This document shows positions 1 through 31,733 of a stretch of 64,000 nucleotides of DNA, piece after piece. Below the pieces are notes generated by a model. That model worked only from the letters and a program-made list of their open reading frames with translations. It was not told the DNA's origin and searched no databases. Every line of letters starts with the position of its first letter. Position 1 is the stretch's first letter. The stretch is taken from positions 11,692 through 75,691 of the forward strand of contig JAJSZW010000002.1 of the NCBI GenBank assembly GCA_030262895.1, written 5' to 3'. The position numbers and the translations under genes are program-made. Source of the DNA: Deltaproteobacteria bacterium. GTDB taxonomy: Bacteria; Desulfobacterota; Desulfobacteria; Desulfobacterales; ETH-SRB1.

Positions 1-2664
1 AGGCAGGACAGATACGGCGCCATAAACACCCGCGGTACCGACAGCTTCAAGACCACCCGTAAGTGACCCTAACACTACGTCGAGTCCCAATCCTGCGCCA
101 AACGCCACGTATGCTTCGGCATACGCAGGAATAAACAGTTCACCACTAATGACAAAGGAAGGCGTTTCCTCGCCAATGGTGTATTCGCCTTCAACCGTGA
201 TATCACGTAACTGACCAGGACCAATGCCCGCTCGCACACCGGCACGCAAACGGATAACTGCTACCAGTATCGCCCAAAGTGGGATATTACGGCTAATACT
301 GAATAGTTCACGATCGGTTTTCTTTTCAGAGAATAGTTCGATGGGTTCGGTGACAGTAATCGCACCACTGATGGTAGTTGTACCTTCCGGAAGTATTTCT
401 AAACCCAAGGTGCCGGCAAGAAAATCTGTCAACTGCGCTGTGATATCGCCACCACCGTAAACAACCAGATCGCCTTTTTCTTTTTGCATTAAACCGAGCT
501 TCACATTGCCCGAGAGTTTGCCGTTATCCCTTTCGTAGTTGATCGTTTGTTCGCCTTTCCACAGGCCTTCACGATACTCGACGTGTAAATTGCCGCCCAG
601 GCCAGCGAGTTTATCGCTTTGTATCGGGATATCTACTTCGCCTTCCAGTTGGCCGTTAACATAATCAATCCGCGCCGATGTACCTTCCAAACCTGGTATA
701 GTAAGATTGACATCAGCGCCAAGCTCAAGCTTTCCTTTTTCGTAACCCGCACGTATATTGCCTGATCCGACACCACCCAGGCTTACGGCCACATCGCCAC
801 GAAAACCCACCTGCCCTTTTTCGTCGATACTTCCCGTTATAGAGCCAGATGTAACAGGCAGTGATTCTGGAAAGTGTTCGGCTTTTACGGTGATTTTCCC
901 GGACAAGCGGCCACTTTTATAACCAAAGGCACCTGTCACCGGTGCCAGCGCTGGAATGCTAATAGTGAATTGACCGCTGCCGCTTACCACACCCTTTGAA
1001 ATAGTGGCGCTCGCCAGGGTTCCTTCGCCGAAATCCCTGTAGACCAGTCGCAACCCGGTAATTACACCAGACAAGTCGCCATTATTCATAATGAGCTGGA
1101 TGCTGCCTTCCGGTACCTCCAGACCAGGAATCGGTGGTGCGATCTTGCTGGCCGGAACCGTCACATCTGCTTTTAGATTTCCTTCTTCAACTGCCAATCC
1201 TATTGACGCACCTTTTAGAAACTCCTGGGTAATATCAATTTTTCCACCACCCTTCGGTGTTCCATCCTGGAATCCCAGATTAAAGTCACCTTTAGCGAGT
1301 CCTTTATAATCCAACGTGGCATTAACGTTGCCGCCGAGTTTTCCTTGCGCCAGATGAATCTCGCCTCCGCCTTCTATGGAAAGCTTCGGCAAGCCTCTGG
1401 GTTTCATTTTGTTGGCGGTGACCGCCAGTGTTGCCGCGACTTGACCCGTATCGTCAACTGTGAGATTGAGTTCCGGATTGTTGAGTGCGCCGATATTTAC
1501 CGGCAACTTAGCGTTCCCCCTAAATGTTGCCTTGCCTTCTGCATTAAAATTCAGTTTGAGGTCAGAACGCAGTTCTCGTGCAAATGGCACATTAAGTTCA
1601 GCGCTAATCTTGCCCGATTTATTGTTTGGCCGGTAAGTTAGAGTTTTTAATGCAAGACCCGGAACCGTCTGAGGCTGCTTTGTCAGATCAGCCCGTTTAT
1701 TGTTGCGCCTTCCTGTTAACACATCTTGCGCAATACGTATTCCGCGACCAAGATTTATGACAATGGCATCATCCCCGGCCGCGTGAGGTTCCGGTGTTGG
1801 TGTTGGTACAGCGGGAACAGGTTCCGGTGGGGAAACGGGCGCGGTTGATGATGCGGTATCATCCGCACGCCGGATAGCTATCGTATTGTCCGGGCGGCCG
1901 GACGCATCCTTGACAGATAAACCTTGCACCACGGTATCAGCAATGCGATCAGCCTCCCGTTCTTGAGGATCATCAGGCAAACCCAGACTTAGTTTAGTCT
2001 TCGGTGGCGAAGGTCCATCAGATTGCTGAGTCGTGTGCGCAATTTCATGGGCCAAAAGCCGCTGCCCTTCTTCACTTTGAGGCTGGTATCTGCCATGACC
2101 AAAATAGATGTCCCGGCCACTTGCAAATGCCTGTGCTCCCAATGCATTGGATGCATCACCTGACCCAATATCTGTATGGAGCCGAACATTGCTCAAATCG
2201 CCTCCAAAACCGGGCTCCATCCGGGACCTGACATCCGGACTCATGCCATGACCCTGACCGCGAGTTTTTTCGATATGACTTTCAACACCACCGGGCACCG
2301 TTTCAGCAGAAGCCGCGTTACCACGAACAGTCGCCTGATCTGTATCTTGCTTACCAGCGTCAGTTCCCTGATTAAGGAATCGCTGCACCGATTGATTACC
2401 ATAGGACCGTTGCAATTGATTCAGCACACCGGCTCGTGCCAAATCATGATGGGATTGATAAAACGCCGGTTCGCTTAGGAGTGCTTTTGTGGAAGAAGGT
2501 GGCGGTTCTGCGCCCGCTGAAACGGACGAACGCTTAACGCAATCATTCTGTCCCCCACTCTGGTGAACAGATTCTGCGTTTAAGCGCTGCTGCTCGACAG
2601 TTTCAGGAACATGTAACTGAACTGCTTCAGGCGCTTCGAACGGCTTTTGAGTTCTTTCAGTCAT
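1..2664 (-). CDS. Large DUF4157-domain (HExxH) protein with Gly-rich/hydrophobic C-terminal extension. Partial: the 3' end runs off the window (at least 888 codons). Candidate CIS payload.
   Basis: Absent from the ORF track because there is no stop in the window. My manual minus-strand translation from ATG 2664-2662 (MTERTQKPFEAPEAV...) stays open to position 1. It contains ...GDLSNVRLHTDIGSGDASNALGAQAFASGRDIYFGHGRYQP...LLAHEIAHTTQQ, paralogous to the core of ORF 19147..20031. The visible end is glycine-zipper-like (AFGAGLGLDVVLGSLTGGLEAVGTAGVYG). Confidence 0.75.
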   Translation of the reverse strand, partial: MTERTQKPFEAPEAVQLHVPETVEQQRLNAESVHQSGGQNDCVKRSSVSAGAEPPPSSTKALLSEPAFYQSHHDLARAGVLNQLQRSYGNQSVQRFLNQGTDAGKQDTDQATVRGNAASAETVPGGVESHIEKTRGQGHGMSPDVRSRMEPGFGGDLSNVRLHTDIGSGDASNALGAQAFASGRDIYFGHGRYQPQSEEGQRLLAHEIAHTTQQSDGPSPPKTKLSLGLPDDPQEREADRIADTVVQGLSVKDASGRPDNTIAIRRADDTASSTAPVSPPEPVPAVPTPTPEPHAAGDDAIVINLGRGIRIAQDVLTGRRNNKRADLTKQPQTVPGLALKTLTYRPNNKSGKISAELNVPFARELRSDLKLNFNAEGKATFRGNAKLPVNIGALNNPELNLTVDDTGQVAATLAVTANKMKPRGLPKLSIEGGGEIHLAQGKLGGNVNATLDYKGLAKGDFNLGFQDGTPKGGGKIDITQEFLKGASIGLAVEEGNLKADVTVPASKIAPPIPGLEVPEGSIQLIMNNGDLSGVITGLRLVYRDFGEGTLASATISKGVVSGSGQFTISIPALAPVTGAFGYKSGRLSGKITVKAEHFPESLPVTSGSITGSIDEKGQVGFRGDVAVSLGGVGSGNIRAGYEKGKLELGADVNLTIPGLEGTSARIDYVNGQLEGEVDIPIQSDKLAGLGGNLHVEYREGLWKGEQTINYERDNGKLSGNVKLGLMQKEKGDLVVYGGGDITAQLTDFLAGTLGLEILPEGTTTISGAITVTEPIELFSEKKTDRELFSISRNIPLWAILVAVIRLRAGVRAGIGPGQLRDITVEGEYTIGEETPSFVISGELFIPAYAEAYVAFGAGLGLDVVLGSLTGGLEAVGTAGVYGAVSVLP

Positions 2665-2682
2665 TGATCCGGTTATTAGTCG

Positions 2683-30785: not shown

Positions 30786-30791
30786 GCTATC

Positions 30792-31733
30792 TTACATTCT
30801 CGTTAAATGTATGGTTTGAACCGTTTCCATTTGGGTTGTTAAATCAATATCAAGTGGAGAAATTGCGGCATAATTCGGTGCCGTTACGCTTAGTGTGATA
30901 TTGTCGATATCAAGATCCAGTCTTTCTGGAAAATATAAAACAAAACACCCCCTGCTATTTACGATCCTTTGGATATCATTGCTTGTTCCAATAACACGTT
31001 TATTTACACCGTTTTGGATTGAGTAAACACGAACGGTATTATTTGCCGCAGTACCCACATCTTCTGCATTTATATTGTGCGAGTTAACACGCGTGATCTC
31101 CACTTGCGCGTTTGGAATAGCTTGATCTGTAGCGGCATCGCGTACCGATCCAATTAGTCTCCGAAGTTGTTTACCAAATGCATAATGTGGTGCTGGTTTC
31201 AGGCGAATAACTCTTTCGCCGATAAATCTAATAATATCGTTTGTGCGTATTCGGGATGCTCCGCTTCCTACTTCATCCAAAGTCGCTTCGCCCACTGATT
31301 CGCCTTCGAGGATAGTAGCTAAAGCACCCAAACGCCTACTCGATATCATCTGTGTACCCGCAACAATTGGATGATAGAAATGACGATTGGCGAATGACAC
31401 TGTTTCAGTGGATGTATCTGAGCCTTGAACGGACAAAAGCAGTTCGTTTTGCCCTGAAATATTTAGTACTGATTTGTCAGTTACCAGTAGCGGCATAGTT
31501 AGGTTATGCTCAAAGCTTTGATAGGATTGTGCTTTAATTGACAACTTATATGCCCCGTCCGGTACATCAGTTAACACGTAAAATCCATCTTGTTTTTTTA
31601 TTGCAGAATGAACACGATCATTGCCACCTATGCTGCTGAGCAAAACATTTCCATTCGTTACTATATTTGAACTTAAATCATCCACGAGCTTAACCGCTAA
31701 GGATACTACCCTGATTTTGGTCTCCAAAAACAA
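30792..31733 (-). CDS. Protein with two carboxypeptidase-regulatory-like beta-sandwich domains; first gene of the CIS block
   Basis: DGFYVLTDVPDGAYKLSIKAQSYQS and VRDAATDQAIPNAQVEITRV...GCFVLYFP...ITLSVTAPNYAA resemble CarboxypepD_reg-type domains. Confidence 0.45.
   Translation of the reverse strand: MFLETKIRVVSLAVKLVDDLSSNIVTNGNVLLSSIGGNDRVHSAIKKQDGFYVLTDVPDGAYKLSIKAQSYQSFEHNLTMPLLVTDKSVLNISGQNELLLSVQGSDTSTETVSFANRHFYHPIVAGTQMISSRRLGALATILEGESVGEATLDEVGSGASRIRTNDIIRFIGERVIRLKPAPHYAFGKQLRRLIGSVRDAATDQAIPNAQVEITRVNSHNINAEDVGTAANNTVRVYSIQNGVNKRVIGTSNDIQRIVNSRGCFVLYFPERLDLDIDNITLSVTAPNYAAISPLDIDLTTQMETVQTIHLTRM

Follow-up and report, generated by a model that had tools for sequence, protein, structure and literature searches.

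What kind of machine is encoded by a long run of phage-tail-like genes that lies beside the housekeeping genes of a Gram-negative sulfate-reducer lineage, and how might it be assembled, controlled and used? This question is raised by a 64,000-nucleotide (nt) stretch of contig JAJSZW010000002.1 (assembly GCA_030262895.1, Deltaproteobacteria bacterium, positions 11,692 to 75,691), referred to here as the window. Its first 31,733 nt form a block of 26 minus-strand genes (g01 to g25 and a small DUF6760 open reading frame (ORF) at 25475-25576), transcribed from position 31733 towards position 1. This block very probably encodes a complete contractile injection system (CIS) of class II, which is a spring-loaded syringe derived from a phage tail. 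As a kind, such systems are known; as a variant, the locus is distinctive in its independent sheath triplication, its split spike, its likely sigma-54 control and its orphan DUF4157 cargo. A signal for programmed -1 frameshifting in a chaperone gene was found to be common to the whole lineage, and it is the part most worth follow-up.

A sequence-only reading of the window had proposed that 26 co-directional, tightly packed or overlapping genes encode a complete CIS core. Each part that it named was matched when profile searches were made with Pfam at its curated cut-offs, with PHROG and with NCBIfam, alongside sequence searches of the PDB, and the strand, order, content and packing of the genes were all as it had stated. 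The intergenic distances from g03 to g25 range from -25 to +45 nt, an operon-style packing. Above the curated cut-offs, Pfam reported Phage_sheath_1 with Phage_sheath_1C three times, Phage_T4_gp19 twice, Pvc16_N, WHD with AAA, and eCIS_core (DUF4157) twice and, on the baseplate side, CIS_tube with LysM, YQBQ, Phage_base_V, PAAR_motif, GPW_gp25, Baseplate_J twice, Tail_P2_I and Big_2. The same reading had given the complete locus as positions 1-31733, and here it needed amending, as the last large gene (1-2664) continues past the left edge of the window. The left flank is provided by the Logan contig L001, which shares 14156 nt with the window at 100% identity and reaches 3.3 kb past position 1. 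The minus-strand CIS run extends 1.7 kb to the left of position 1, giving about 33 kb altogether; at the end of L001 there follow the gene of a 351-residue TPR protein and then, on the opposite strand, a C-terminal DDE transposase fragment (L001 15972-17396, that is, 1.8-3.2 kb left of position 1).

The sheath and tube genes lie in the upstream part of the block, all of whose genes are on the minus strand. They comprise a long sheath paralogue, g03 (28135-30237, 700 residues; Pfam sheath domains, best PDB match 8BKY at 8.5e-102); a short sheath, g04 (26597-28120, 507 residues), which was matched by Pfam and aligned over its full length with the Streptomyces sheath; tube protein A, g05 (26086-26553, gp19 family, Pfam 2.4e-44); a third, divergent sheath paralogue, g07 (23405-25462, 685 residues; Pfam, best PDB match 8BKY at 3.8e-85); and tube protein B, g08 (22878-23378, gp19 family, 2.1e-34). 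They are followed by the cap or tail terminator g09 (22297-22881; Pvc16_N, formerly DUF4255, 4.6e-42), the AAA+ ATPase g10 with an N-terminal winged helix of the Afp15/Pvc15 type (20028-22313; WHD 6e-51, AAA 2.8e-31) and g11, a DUF4157/eCIS_core protein of 294 residues with an HExxH motif (19147-20031, 3.2e-28).

The baseplate and spike are encoded further along the block. The tube initiator g13 (17049-17735, Afp7/Cis7 type) combines CIS_tube (6.4e-29) and LysM (5.6e-10) domains and matches chain P of PDB entry 9GTP. The spike is divided between g14, a gpD-like N-terminal half (15970-17040; YQBQ 7.8e-8, PHROG 52 at 6e-32, Phage_GPD below its cut-off), and g15, a gpV-like C-terminal half with an OB fold (15326-15994, 5.8e-30); the two genes overlap by 25 nt (15970-15994) in different frames, and their products jointly align along the single, fused Cis8/VgrG chains of 581-643 residues in solved CISs. 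Then come the PAAR spike tip g16 (14903-15325, 1.1e-11), the gp25/gpW sheath initiator g17 (14484-14882, 6.8e-24; PDB 2IA7 at 3e-30), the large, Cis11/Afp11-like Baseplate_J wedge g18 (11389-14487, 1032 residues, 1.5e-12; PDB AlgoCIS 7AEB chain G and Afp11), the second Baseplate_J wedge g19 (9423-11408, 661 residues, 8.2e-10; baseplate J-like chain of Streptomyces 9GTP at 2.8e-39) and the P2 gpI-like baseplate protein g20 (8434-9426; Tail_P2_I 1.3e-10, NCBIfam tail_TIGR02242 3.4e-11, and weakly CIS12_fam). The baseplate, spike and gp25 proteins matched chains of solved CIS baseplates, namely those of Streptomyces (9GTP/9GTR), AlgoCIS (7AEB/7AEF), Anabaena (7B5H) and Salmonella (9RCE).

Sheath, tube, a gpV/W/J/I-type baseplate and a frameshifted chaperone pair are also traits of phages and tailocins, and the wider neighbourhood contains the transposase fragment and an HTH/ImmA-like gene; the block might then be an R-type tailocin, or it might belong to a myovirus prophage, defective or intact, as its tail module. 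We regard this as very improbable. As the sequence-only reading had claimed for capsid, portal and terminase genes, none was found, and profile searches of the block, the 30 kb to its right and the 3.3 kb to its left revealed no integrase, lysis or replication genes either; the window contains no tRNA gene. Moreover, the Pvc16-type cap, the Afp15-type WHD-AAA+ ATPase and the DUF4157/eCIS_core genes are CIS-specific, and we know of none of them in phages or R-type pyocins. Homologous sheaths occur in the same type of cluster by the thousands, across phyla. A canonical type VI secretion system (T6SS; types i-iii) was also considered and set aside: Pfam gave no match to the T6SS-specific families TssB/TssC, ClpV and TssJLM, and the only components held in common were the gpV OB fold, PAAR and gp25, which are shared with phage tails. 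Because all structural modules are encoded (baseplate and spike in g13-g20, two tubes, three sheaths, cap and ATPase) and head and packaging genes are lacking, the block is best read as a complete CIS.

Which CIS lineage the block represents is indicated by its sheaths. The top PDB matches of g04 were the sheaths of Halogeometricum borinquense (9EZM, 2e-98) and Streptomyces coelicolor (8BKY, 9e-96, over the full length), together with Streptomyces 8BL4. All three window sheaths matched S. coelicolor 8BKY/8BL4 with E-values of 4e-85 to 9e-102 and Halogeometricum 9EZM with values of about 1e-73 to 2e-98, whereas Afp2-4 and Pvc2-4 were matched at 1e-17 to 1e-44 and in the C-terminal half only. 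For g04, the Anabaena, PVC, Afp and AlgoCIS sheaths gave 1e-41 or weaker (Afp4, 1.6e-24), confined to the C-terminal 200 residues, and the Anabaena sheath was not nearer to the window sheath than Pvc2. Since the window sheaths are far nearer to those of Streptomyces and Halogeometricum than to Afp2-4 or Pvc2-4, their triplication is independent of that in Afp, and by these alignments the trio is not orthologous to Afp2/3/4. Membership of Afp/PVC proper (class Ia) was rejected, as the gene order differs and none of the Afp or Pvc paralogues is as near to any window sheath as the one sheath of Streptomyces. The sequence-only reading had likened the gene order to that of Streptomyces-type clusters rather than Serratia Afp. 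The nearness to the Streptomyces type holds for the sheaths; the gene order departs from that type in detail, with three sheath genes and with cap and ATPase in mid-cluster.

For wider comparison, 80 genome loci from Actinobacteria, Chloroflexi, archaea and other phyla were fetched with the sheath, besides the metagenomic loci L083, L084 and L086. A single sheath gene is present in 77 of the 80 genome loci; the three-sheath layout was found only in L002 (Acidobacteria) and L003 (Fibrobacteria) among them, and also in the metagenomic L083 (70% identity), L084 and L086 (96%). In a neighbour-joining tree of 88 sheaths, the window copies group with L086, L083, L084, L002 and L003, and this group branches outside a large actinobacterial, Chloroflexi, cyanobacterial and archaeal clade. 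Within the group, short and long sheaths each pair with their counterparts in the other three-sheath loci, which indicates that the duplication is old. The two ends of g03 are 45-49% identical to g04, so that g03 consists of g04-like ends and an insertion of about 250 residues; g07 is 35% identical to g04. The split of the spike into two ORFs was found in 11 of 57 related loci, Methanosarcina and Methanoperedens among them. By sheath grouping the locus thus belongs to the class II CIS lineage, in which the haloarchaeal CIS represents clade IIa and the Streptomyces CIS clade IId (PMC11566945, PMC10066040), and the window branch is separate from the actinobacterial (IId-type) clade.

How such a machine might be assembled is suggested by the gene that directly follows tube A. 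This gene, g06 (25654-26040), encodes 128 residues from a GTG or 126 residues from the ATG at 26034, ends in a CPHC zinc ribbon and matches PHROG 508, "tail assembly chaperone", at 3.5e-6. Its 4720 homologues have a near-constant length of about 126 residues, some of them being named "phage tail assembly protein" by NCBI, and a homologue follows tube A in 76 of the 80 related loci. The apparent 190-nt gap after g06 holds a 33-residue ORF beginning with ATG, which matches Pfam DUF6760 at 7.9e-6 over model positions 31-56 only. The DUF6760 reading frame is longer, comprising 64 codons (25475-25669) and being shifted by -1 against that of g06; it stays open to a point 13 nt ahead of the g06 stop codon and contains no ATG, GTG or TTG before codon 32, the ATG at 25576. 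Directly before the g06 stop (25654-25656) stands a slippery heptamer, G_GGG_GAA, at 25657-25663 in the X_XXY_YYZ phase, and a slip at this site is predicted to yield a g06-DUF6760 fusion of 188 residues. Slippage by -1 on GGGGGAA has been documented for the tail assembly chaperone genes of phages, with about a thousand cases in the SEA-PHAGES actinophages (PMC10885494) and another in corynephage phi16 (PMC5506516). The "chaperone pair" of the sequence-only reading consists of one 128-residue gene and an overlapping -1-frame ORF rather than of two ordinary genes.

The arrangement recurs across the lineage, in bacteria and archaea alike. Of 78 loci, 77 have DUF6760 homology in the -1 frame, starting where the chaperone gene ends, and an in-phase G_GGG_GRR is present in the last chaperone codons of 75 of the 78; in 54 of these 75 the heptamer is GGGGGAA, and in 72 it lies within 3 nt of the stop. 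For comparison, the heptamer occurs by background once per 4.1 kb, and only 15% of the glycine codons in the neighbouring sheath genes are GGG. A stem-loop begins 6-7 nt 3' of the heptamer across loci; in the window it starts 6 nt downstream and spans 25617-25650, with arms at 25642-25650 and 25617-25626 (GCUAUCCCC ... GGGaGAUAGC). An RNAalifold consensus of all 48 frameshift-site sequences contained no pairs; the sequences form two groups that use different 3' partners, and pairs were counted after these groups had been split. Group A (17 loci including the window) has 11 pairs, 94% of which are paired as compared with 29-65% in slid controls, and three of these pairs carry compensatory changes. 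Group B (31 loci, mostly actinobacterial) has 12 pairs, 88% paired versus 16-46% in slid controls, with compensatory changes in 6 pairs and 16 cells, a level reached by none of 500 shuffles.

These signals could alternatively be those of a separately translated DUF6760 protein, in which case the G-run would serve as a Shine-Dalgarno sequence for a start codon overlapping the g06 stop and no frameshift would occur. G-rich tracts can indeed pair with the anti-Shine-Dalgarno sequence, 43 of the 78 loci have a GTG, ATG or TTG that shares bases with the g06 stop and is plausibly spaced from the G-run, and gene callers annotate DUF6760 as free-standing small proteins. However, the other 35 loci, the window among them, have ATA, CTG, GTA or CTA at the required start position; a canonical start is next met 12-52 codons into the conserved domain, and in two of these loci there is none at all. 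The residues ahead of the first ATG in the window are conserved: over the 29 codons from the slip site to this ATG, window and L083 share 13 identical and 6 synonymous codons, 10 being changed, with the core REIAFIAYHFHW kept and again no ATG, GTG or TTG. In L086, the 96%-identical relative, the 190 nt with the frameshift signal show 100% identity. Synonymous changes of the GGAGGAA or GGCGGCGAA type would disrupt the heptamer; across loci it is always a G homopolymer (GGGGGAA, GGGGGGA or GGGGGGG) and never GGAGG. In addition, initiation would be impeded by a stem of 11-12 bp that begins at the supposed start codon, whereas its spacing is classic for frameshift stimulation. Database calls of DUF6760 have scattered starts and lengths of 40-104 residues, many being truncated, and a natural in-frame fusion of g06-like and DUF6760 parts exists as database protein P0408 (159 residues). 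As the start-less loci, the lack of any GGAGG variant and the stem on the supposed start are left unexplained by a ribosome-binding site, separate translation is considered unlikely.

The preferred reading, by contrast, is that g06 and DUF6760 form a pair of the phage G/GT type made by programmed -1 frameshifting at G_GGG_GAA, a proposal in which we place good confidence on the strength of the comparative evidence. The window has the chaperone gene directly after the tube gene, a second ORF in the -1 frame, an in-phase heptamer and a stem-loop 6 nt downstream. Three points speak against the proposal. The stem-loop of the window itself is not more stable than shuffled sequences (z = 0.14 to 0.34), and support for it is comparative. 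An AlphaFold2 model of g06, built on an alignment of 28 sequences, was unusable (predicted local distance difference test 45, predicted TM-score 0.30) and lends no support to a chaperone fold. Finally, phage pairs of this type stand immediately upstream of the tape measure gene, and the next gene in the window encodes a sheath.

The last point leads to the question of a tape measure. The best candidate by position is g12 ("X", 17741-19144), a basic, family-less protein of 467 residues (isoelectric point 10.1) that precedes the LysM initiator; Pfam, PHROG, NCBIfam and PDB searches returned no match for it. It shares only its last 30 or so residues with a 552-residue protein at the same position in L083. 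The candidacy is weakened by two observations: no similarity of g12 to a tape measure protein of any kind could be detected, and it lies five genes after the chaperone pair, while phages encode the tape measure directly after the chaperones. A tape measure gene has been reported as absent from the Streptomyces and haloarchaeal CISs (PMC10066040, PMC12237407, PMC11566945). No paper found in the searchable literature mentions DUF6760 or a frameshifted chaperone in any CIS. That class II CISs as a whole, including the Streptomyces-type and archaeal ones, assemble with a frameshift-made G/GT chaperone whose "T" part is DUF6760 is a tentative proposal, to which we give slightly less than even chances. 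If true, class II CISs would hold an unrecognised tape-measure-like partner and a chaperone-templated length control. A side observation concerns positions 12878-13957 of the Streptomyces locus L030, which have equivalents in other Streptomyces loci: here the frameshift pair is followed by a Pro/Ala/Arg-rich ORF of 359 residues and then by tube B, and in a phage the tape measure gene would be expected at the site of this ORF.

Where the assembled machine would act is the next question. The sequence-only reading had labelled the locus "eCIS/Afp/PVC-like", which is borne out for the parts list but not for the extracellular mode that it implies, as the characterised CISs with the closest sheaths act from inside the cell, that of Streptomyces being cytoplasmic and that of Halogeometricum membrane-bound (PMC10066040, PMC11566945). 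By analogy with them, a cell-associated mode, either membrane-attached or cytoplasmic, is favoured for the window CIS, though at even confidence. The competing view is that of an extracellular CIS in the style of Afp and PVC, in which particles built in the cytoplasm and set free by lysis of the producer would bind a target cell via the fibre candidate g21 and inject g25. This candidate (7156-8430, 424 residues) stands at the P2 gpH position, beside the gpI-like g20, and contains a Big_2 Ig-like domain (6.3e-9); its N- and C-terminal parts gave no matches in Pfam or PDB searches. It and g12 occupy the expected positions of the Afp13 fibre and the Afp14 tape measure, g21 matching Big_2 only and g12 nothing. 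The Afp-like parts list, with cap, ATPase, fibre-position and tape-measure-position genes, is full, and three sheaths with two tubes are found in Afp and PVC as well; furthermore, none of the structural proteins of the window CIS has a membrane-spanning segment able to anchor the baseplate. On the other side stand the sheath affinities described above and the action of the closest characterised relatives from inside the cell, and neither the block nor its flanks contain a holin/endolysin cassette. In addition, haloarchaeal Cis12 and Cis13, located at the baseplate periphery, have been suggested to aid membrane anchoring (PMC11566945), and by analogy extracellular action is not proven by the presence of a gene at the fibre position. 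The extracellular view is accordingly held to be a possible but doubtful one.

The probable cargo of the window CIS, in either mode, is g25. Its N-terminal 888 residues are encoded at 1-2664 and the full length of 1467 residues was obtained from L001; an eCIS_core (DUF4157) domain is found at residues 142-217 (Pfam 1.7e-27), followed by a Gly-rich, beta-like middle part, hydrophobic Gly-zipper-like segments, a Lys/Pro-rich linker and a C-terminal domain of 383 residues. This last domain has no Pfam or PDB match, and a homologue search with it returned nothing at E <= 0.001, a weak negative given that the query protein itself was not returned. An HNH-like motif seen by eye in the domain was unsupported and was dropped. 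In the haloarchaeal system, DUF4157 proteins were found to be secreted in a sheath-dependent manner, some of them being toxic and having a downstream protective partner (PMC11566945). By analogy, g25 is the likeliest cargo or effector, and the TPR protein encoded after it is a candidate partner. A point against the assignment is that the DUF4157 domain is the sole feature of g25 on which it is based.

Between g20-g21 and g25 lie three accessory genes. The first, g22 (4175-7138), encodes an envelope protein of 987 residues (NCBIfam choice-of-anchor X, 3.5e-10) with a signal-peptide-like N-terminus, a weak von Willebrand factor A (VWA)/metal-ion-dependent adhesion site region (VWA 0.0076, below the cut-off) and a C-terminal transmembrane helix, the transmembrane-like segments being residues 15-34 and 959-987. 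It is not conserved in the other related loci. A role as a CisA-like membrane adaptor was considered and rejected, as the topology of g22 is the opposite one: about five residues would be cytoplasmic and nearly all of the protein extracytoplasmic. The products of g23 (3548-4156, 202 residues) and g24 (2683-3561, 292 residues) are CxxCxxCC metal-binding proteins, the former of the YkgJ type, with Pfam values just below (4.9e-4) and above (1e-7) the cut-off, respectively. At the other end of the block, its first gene, g01 (30792-31733, start uncertain), encodes a CarboxypepD_reg-like beta-sandwich protein of 313 residues (Pfam 6.2e-12), homologues of which occupy the same first position in L002, L003, L084 and L086, and g02 (30326-30664) encodes a Lys-rich protein of 112 residues (isoelectric point 9.9) that matched no family. 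None of g01, g02, g22, g23, g24 and g25 had a PDB sequence match at E <= 1.

Upstream of the block, the question is how its expression may be controlled. A gene directly upstream of the cluster (32681-34018, minus strand) encodes a sigma-54-dependent response regulator with receiver, Sigma54_activat and HTH_8 domains (Pfam 1.3e-67), and a homologous activator gene is found upstream of the related loci L003 and L005. Between this gene and the next one lies a perfect match to the sigma-54 -24/-12 promoter, TGGCACttataTTGC (32355-32369, minus strand; exact TGGCAC-N5-TTGC), which is intergenic and points to the cluster. Two exact matches of this kind occur in the 64 kb, compared with 0.21 expected, and 2 of 100 shuffles reach two. 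The first gene after the promoter, at 32045-32296 on the minus strand, encodes a DUF3467 protein of 83 residues (Pfam 2.8e-14), for which tblastn found no match in the 80 related loci, and no terminator-like site was scored on the coding strand from the promoter to the sheath genes. The Fibrobacteria locus L003 has a comparable order of activator, TGGCAT-N5-TTGCA and g01 homologue. From the exact promoter and the activator gene, sigma-54 control of the window locus is a reasonable inference. Several facts count against it. The promoter precedes the DUF3467 gene and a 311-nt leader rather than the first CIS gene directly; the GC content at third codon positions (GC3) of the activator and DUF3467 genes is about 0.6 (activator 0.62), as compared with 0.42 in the CIS block and 0.36 in the housekeeping genes; and among the relatives, the promoter was found in L003 only, with none in L002, L083 or L084. 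Sigma-54 control is therefore not a general or family trait, and the genes for the activator and DUF3467 may have been acquired separately, as a module of their own.

Two further features were observed in this upstream region. A truncated paralogue of the DUF3467 gene lies beyond the activator gene (34022-34330, minus strand; 73% identity over 26 residues). The 311-nt leader contains a long inverted repeat, the second in the region, at 31759-31927, with arms of 25 nt that are 92% complementary and 119 nt apart; a role in RNA processing or attenuation is conceivable.

As for the origin of the block, the sequence-only reading had estimated by eye a GC excess of about 10 points and had taken this as a sign of horizontal acquisition. 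The computed excess is smaller, at 5-7 points: the block has 46.2% GC, positions 34331-55600 have 39.3% and the whole part to the right of the block has 41.1%. The pooled GC3 of coding sequences is 0.417 in the block versus 0.359 in the right part, and the tetranucleotide profiles of the two correlate with r = 0.72. The nearest genome relatives by sheath are Acidobacteria, Fibrobacteria, Leptospiraceae and Nitrospiraceae metagenome-assembled genomes, at 47-50% identity, and a genome scan with the CIS sheath revealed no relative above 50%. Horizontal acquisition is plausible because of the compositional contrast, the distal transposase remnant and the fact that the nearest genome relatives belong to other phyla and do not exceed 50% identity, but it is unproven, this support being indirect. 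Further GC-richer patches were found to the right of the block, with 47-51% at 32-34 kb and at 55.6-60 kb, so the CIS block is not the sole compositional outlier; it is probably mobile and moderately GC-richer.

Some observations were made on these patches and on mobile elements. The region 55600-60000 (46.9% GC) holds two unmatched genes and one for a TPR/BTAD protein, and a gene at 43704-45145 (minus strand, 48% GC) combines HTH_3 with an ImmA/IrrE-type Peptidase_M78 domain. Between g01 and g02, at 30680-30785, there is a perfect inverted repeat of 27 nt with a 52-nt loop, which occurs once in the window; the piece of about 110 nt that carries it is absent from the 96%-identical L086, and it therefore looks like a miniature inverted-repeat insertion. 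In the metagenomic locus L084 (1-5000), the CIS cluster adjoins RepA_C, MazE/PemK and IS1 genes and its ATPase is split into three ORFs, which suggests a plasmid-borne, decaying CIS copy.

The right-hand 30 kb of the window carry housekeeping genes, namely those for RNase J, FtsK, a biotin cluster, BirA and HrpA. The window's FtsK and BioB fall into 90%-identity clusters in which the named members are Desulfobacterales/Desulfobacteraceae metagenome-assembled genomes, and the assignment of the host is based on these names. The biotin cluster (46610-55571, plus strand; bioB, bioA-like, bioF-like and bioD-like) is interspersed with genes for short-chain dehydrogenase/reductase, acyl carrier protein, nitroreductase and ketoacyl synthase, and a BirA-like repressor/ligase gene is found nearby on the other strand (42110-43129, minus strand). 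A c-di-GMP-I riboswitch at 41178-41268 (plus strand; Rfam 46.5 bits, gathering score 35) lies 18 nt 5' of a PEP-CTERM/DUF4114 gene (41286-42041, plus strand) and about 220 nt after the second perfect sigma-54 match of the window (40945-40959, plus strand). The exoprotein gene would thus be under two layers of control, riboswitch and sigma-54.

Taken together, these parts suggest how a CIS encoded in the chromosome of this Desulfobacteraceae-like bacterium may work. Transcription would probably start from the sigma-54 promoter at 32355-32369, under the control of the adjacent activator. The baseplate is predicted to assemble around the split gpD/gpV spike with its PAAR tip, and a tape-measure-like g12 might be held by the chaperone g06 and by the frameshift product g06-DUF6760, which would arise when the ribosome slips back by one nucleotide on G_GGG_GAA ahead of the stem-loop. 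The tube and then the sheath would polymerise on this scaffold and be closed by the Pvc16-type cap, and DUF4157 proteins (the 1467-residue g25 and perhaps g11) might be loaded with the help of the ATPase. Upon a trigger, contraction of the sheath would drive tube, spike and cargo through a membrane.

CISs are under development as programmable protein-delivery devices, and class II is their largest and least understood branch, of which a handful of members have been studied. The window locus adds a complete and compact example from a Gram-negative sulfate-reducer lineage. If the frameshift is real, it links CIS assembly to the tape-measure/chaperone mechanism of phages and would explain a conserved gene pair that is now miscalled by annotation pipelines. 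For the host genome, the locus would be one more horizontally mobile weapon or death cassette, ordinary in kind.

Comparison with known systems places these features in context. The frameshifted chaperones of phages (lambda G/GT, P2 E/E+E' and the GGGGGAA pairs of actinophages) resemble the window pair in following the tube gene directly, in having a start-less second ORF in the -1 frame with an RNA structure downstream and, in the case of actinophages and phi16, in the identical heptamer. The window pair differs from them in that no recognisable tape measure comes next, in its short second part (about 60 residues of DUF6760) and in the zinc ribbon of g06. The baseplate genes of phage P2 are arranged in the order V-W-J-I-H-G, and the window follows this order with g15 (gpV), g17 (gpW/gp25), g18 and g19 (gpJ), g20 (gpI) and g21 at the fibre position; P2 also has gpD-like and gpV-like proteins as separate chains. 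Unlike P2, the window has an inserted PAAR gene, two J-like genes, a g21 that shows no similarity to gpH and no fibre chaperone. To our knowledge, Afp and PVC have neither a g06/DUF6760 pair nor a DUF4157 core gene. These class Ia eCISs (extracellular CISs) of Serratia and Photorhabdus share with the window the Afp1-16 equivalents, including three sheaths, two tubes, a Pvc16-type cap, an Afp15-type ATPase, PAAR and the LysM initiator, and they differ from it in gene order and in their fused spikes, Afp8 and Pvc8.

Closer counterparts are found in class II. The sheath of the archaeal T6SS-like CIS of Halogeometricum borinquense (clade IIa, 9EZM) is the top PDB match of g04; its host is an archaeon, the cluster is plasmid-borne and split by an 8.7-kb spacer, and three sheath genes are not known there. 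Its baseplates were seen docked on the cytoplasmic membrane. Like the window, it has DUF4157 proteins in and next to the cluster, and the name "Cis8a" used for it suggests a divided spike, as in the window (PMC11566945). The CIS of Streptomyces coelicolor (CIS-Sc; dbeCIS subtype IId; 8BKY, 8BL4 and 9GTP) differs from the window in its single sheath gene, its fused spike (Cis8), the lack of a fibre gene and its Gram-positive actinomycete host; its cluster also encodes CisA, a bitopic membrane protein with a cytoplasmic arm of 285 residues (PMC12237407), to which g22 is opposite in topology. Nevertheless, CIS-Sc provides the best or second-best PDB match for all three window sheaths and also matches the g19 wedge, the gp25 protein, the LysM initiator and the spike. 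It likewise possesses two tube genes, a Cis16 cap and an AAA+ ATPase, and related Streptomyces loci carry, as does the window, the g06/DUF6760 pair with GGGGGAA.

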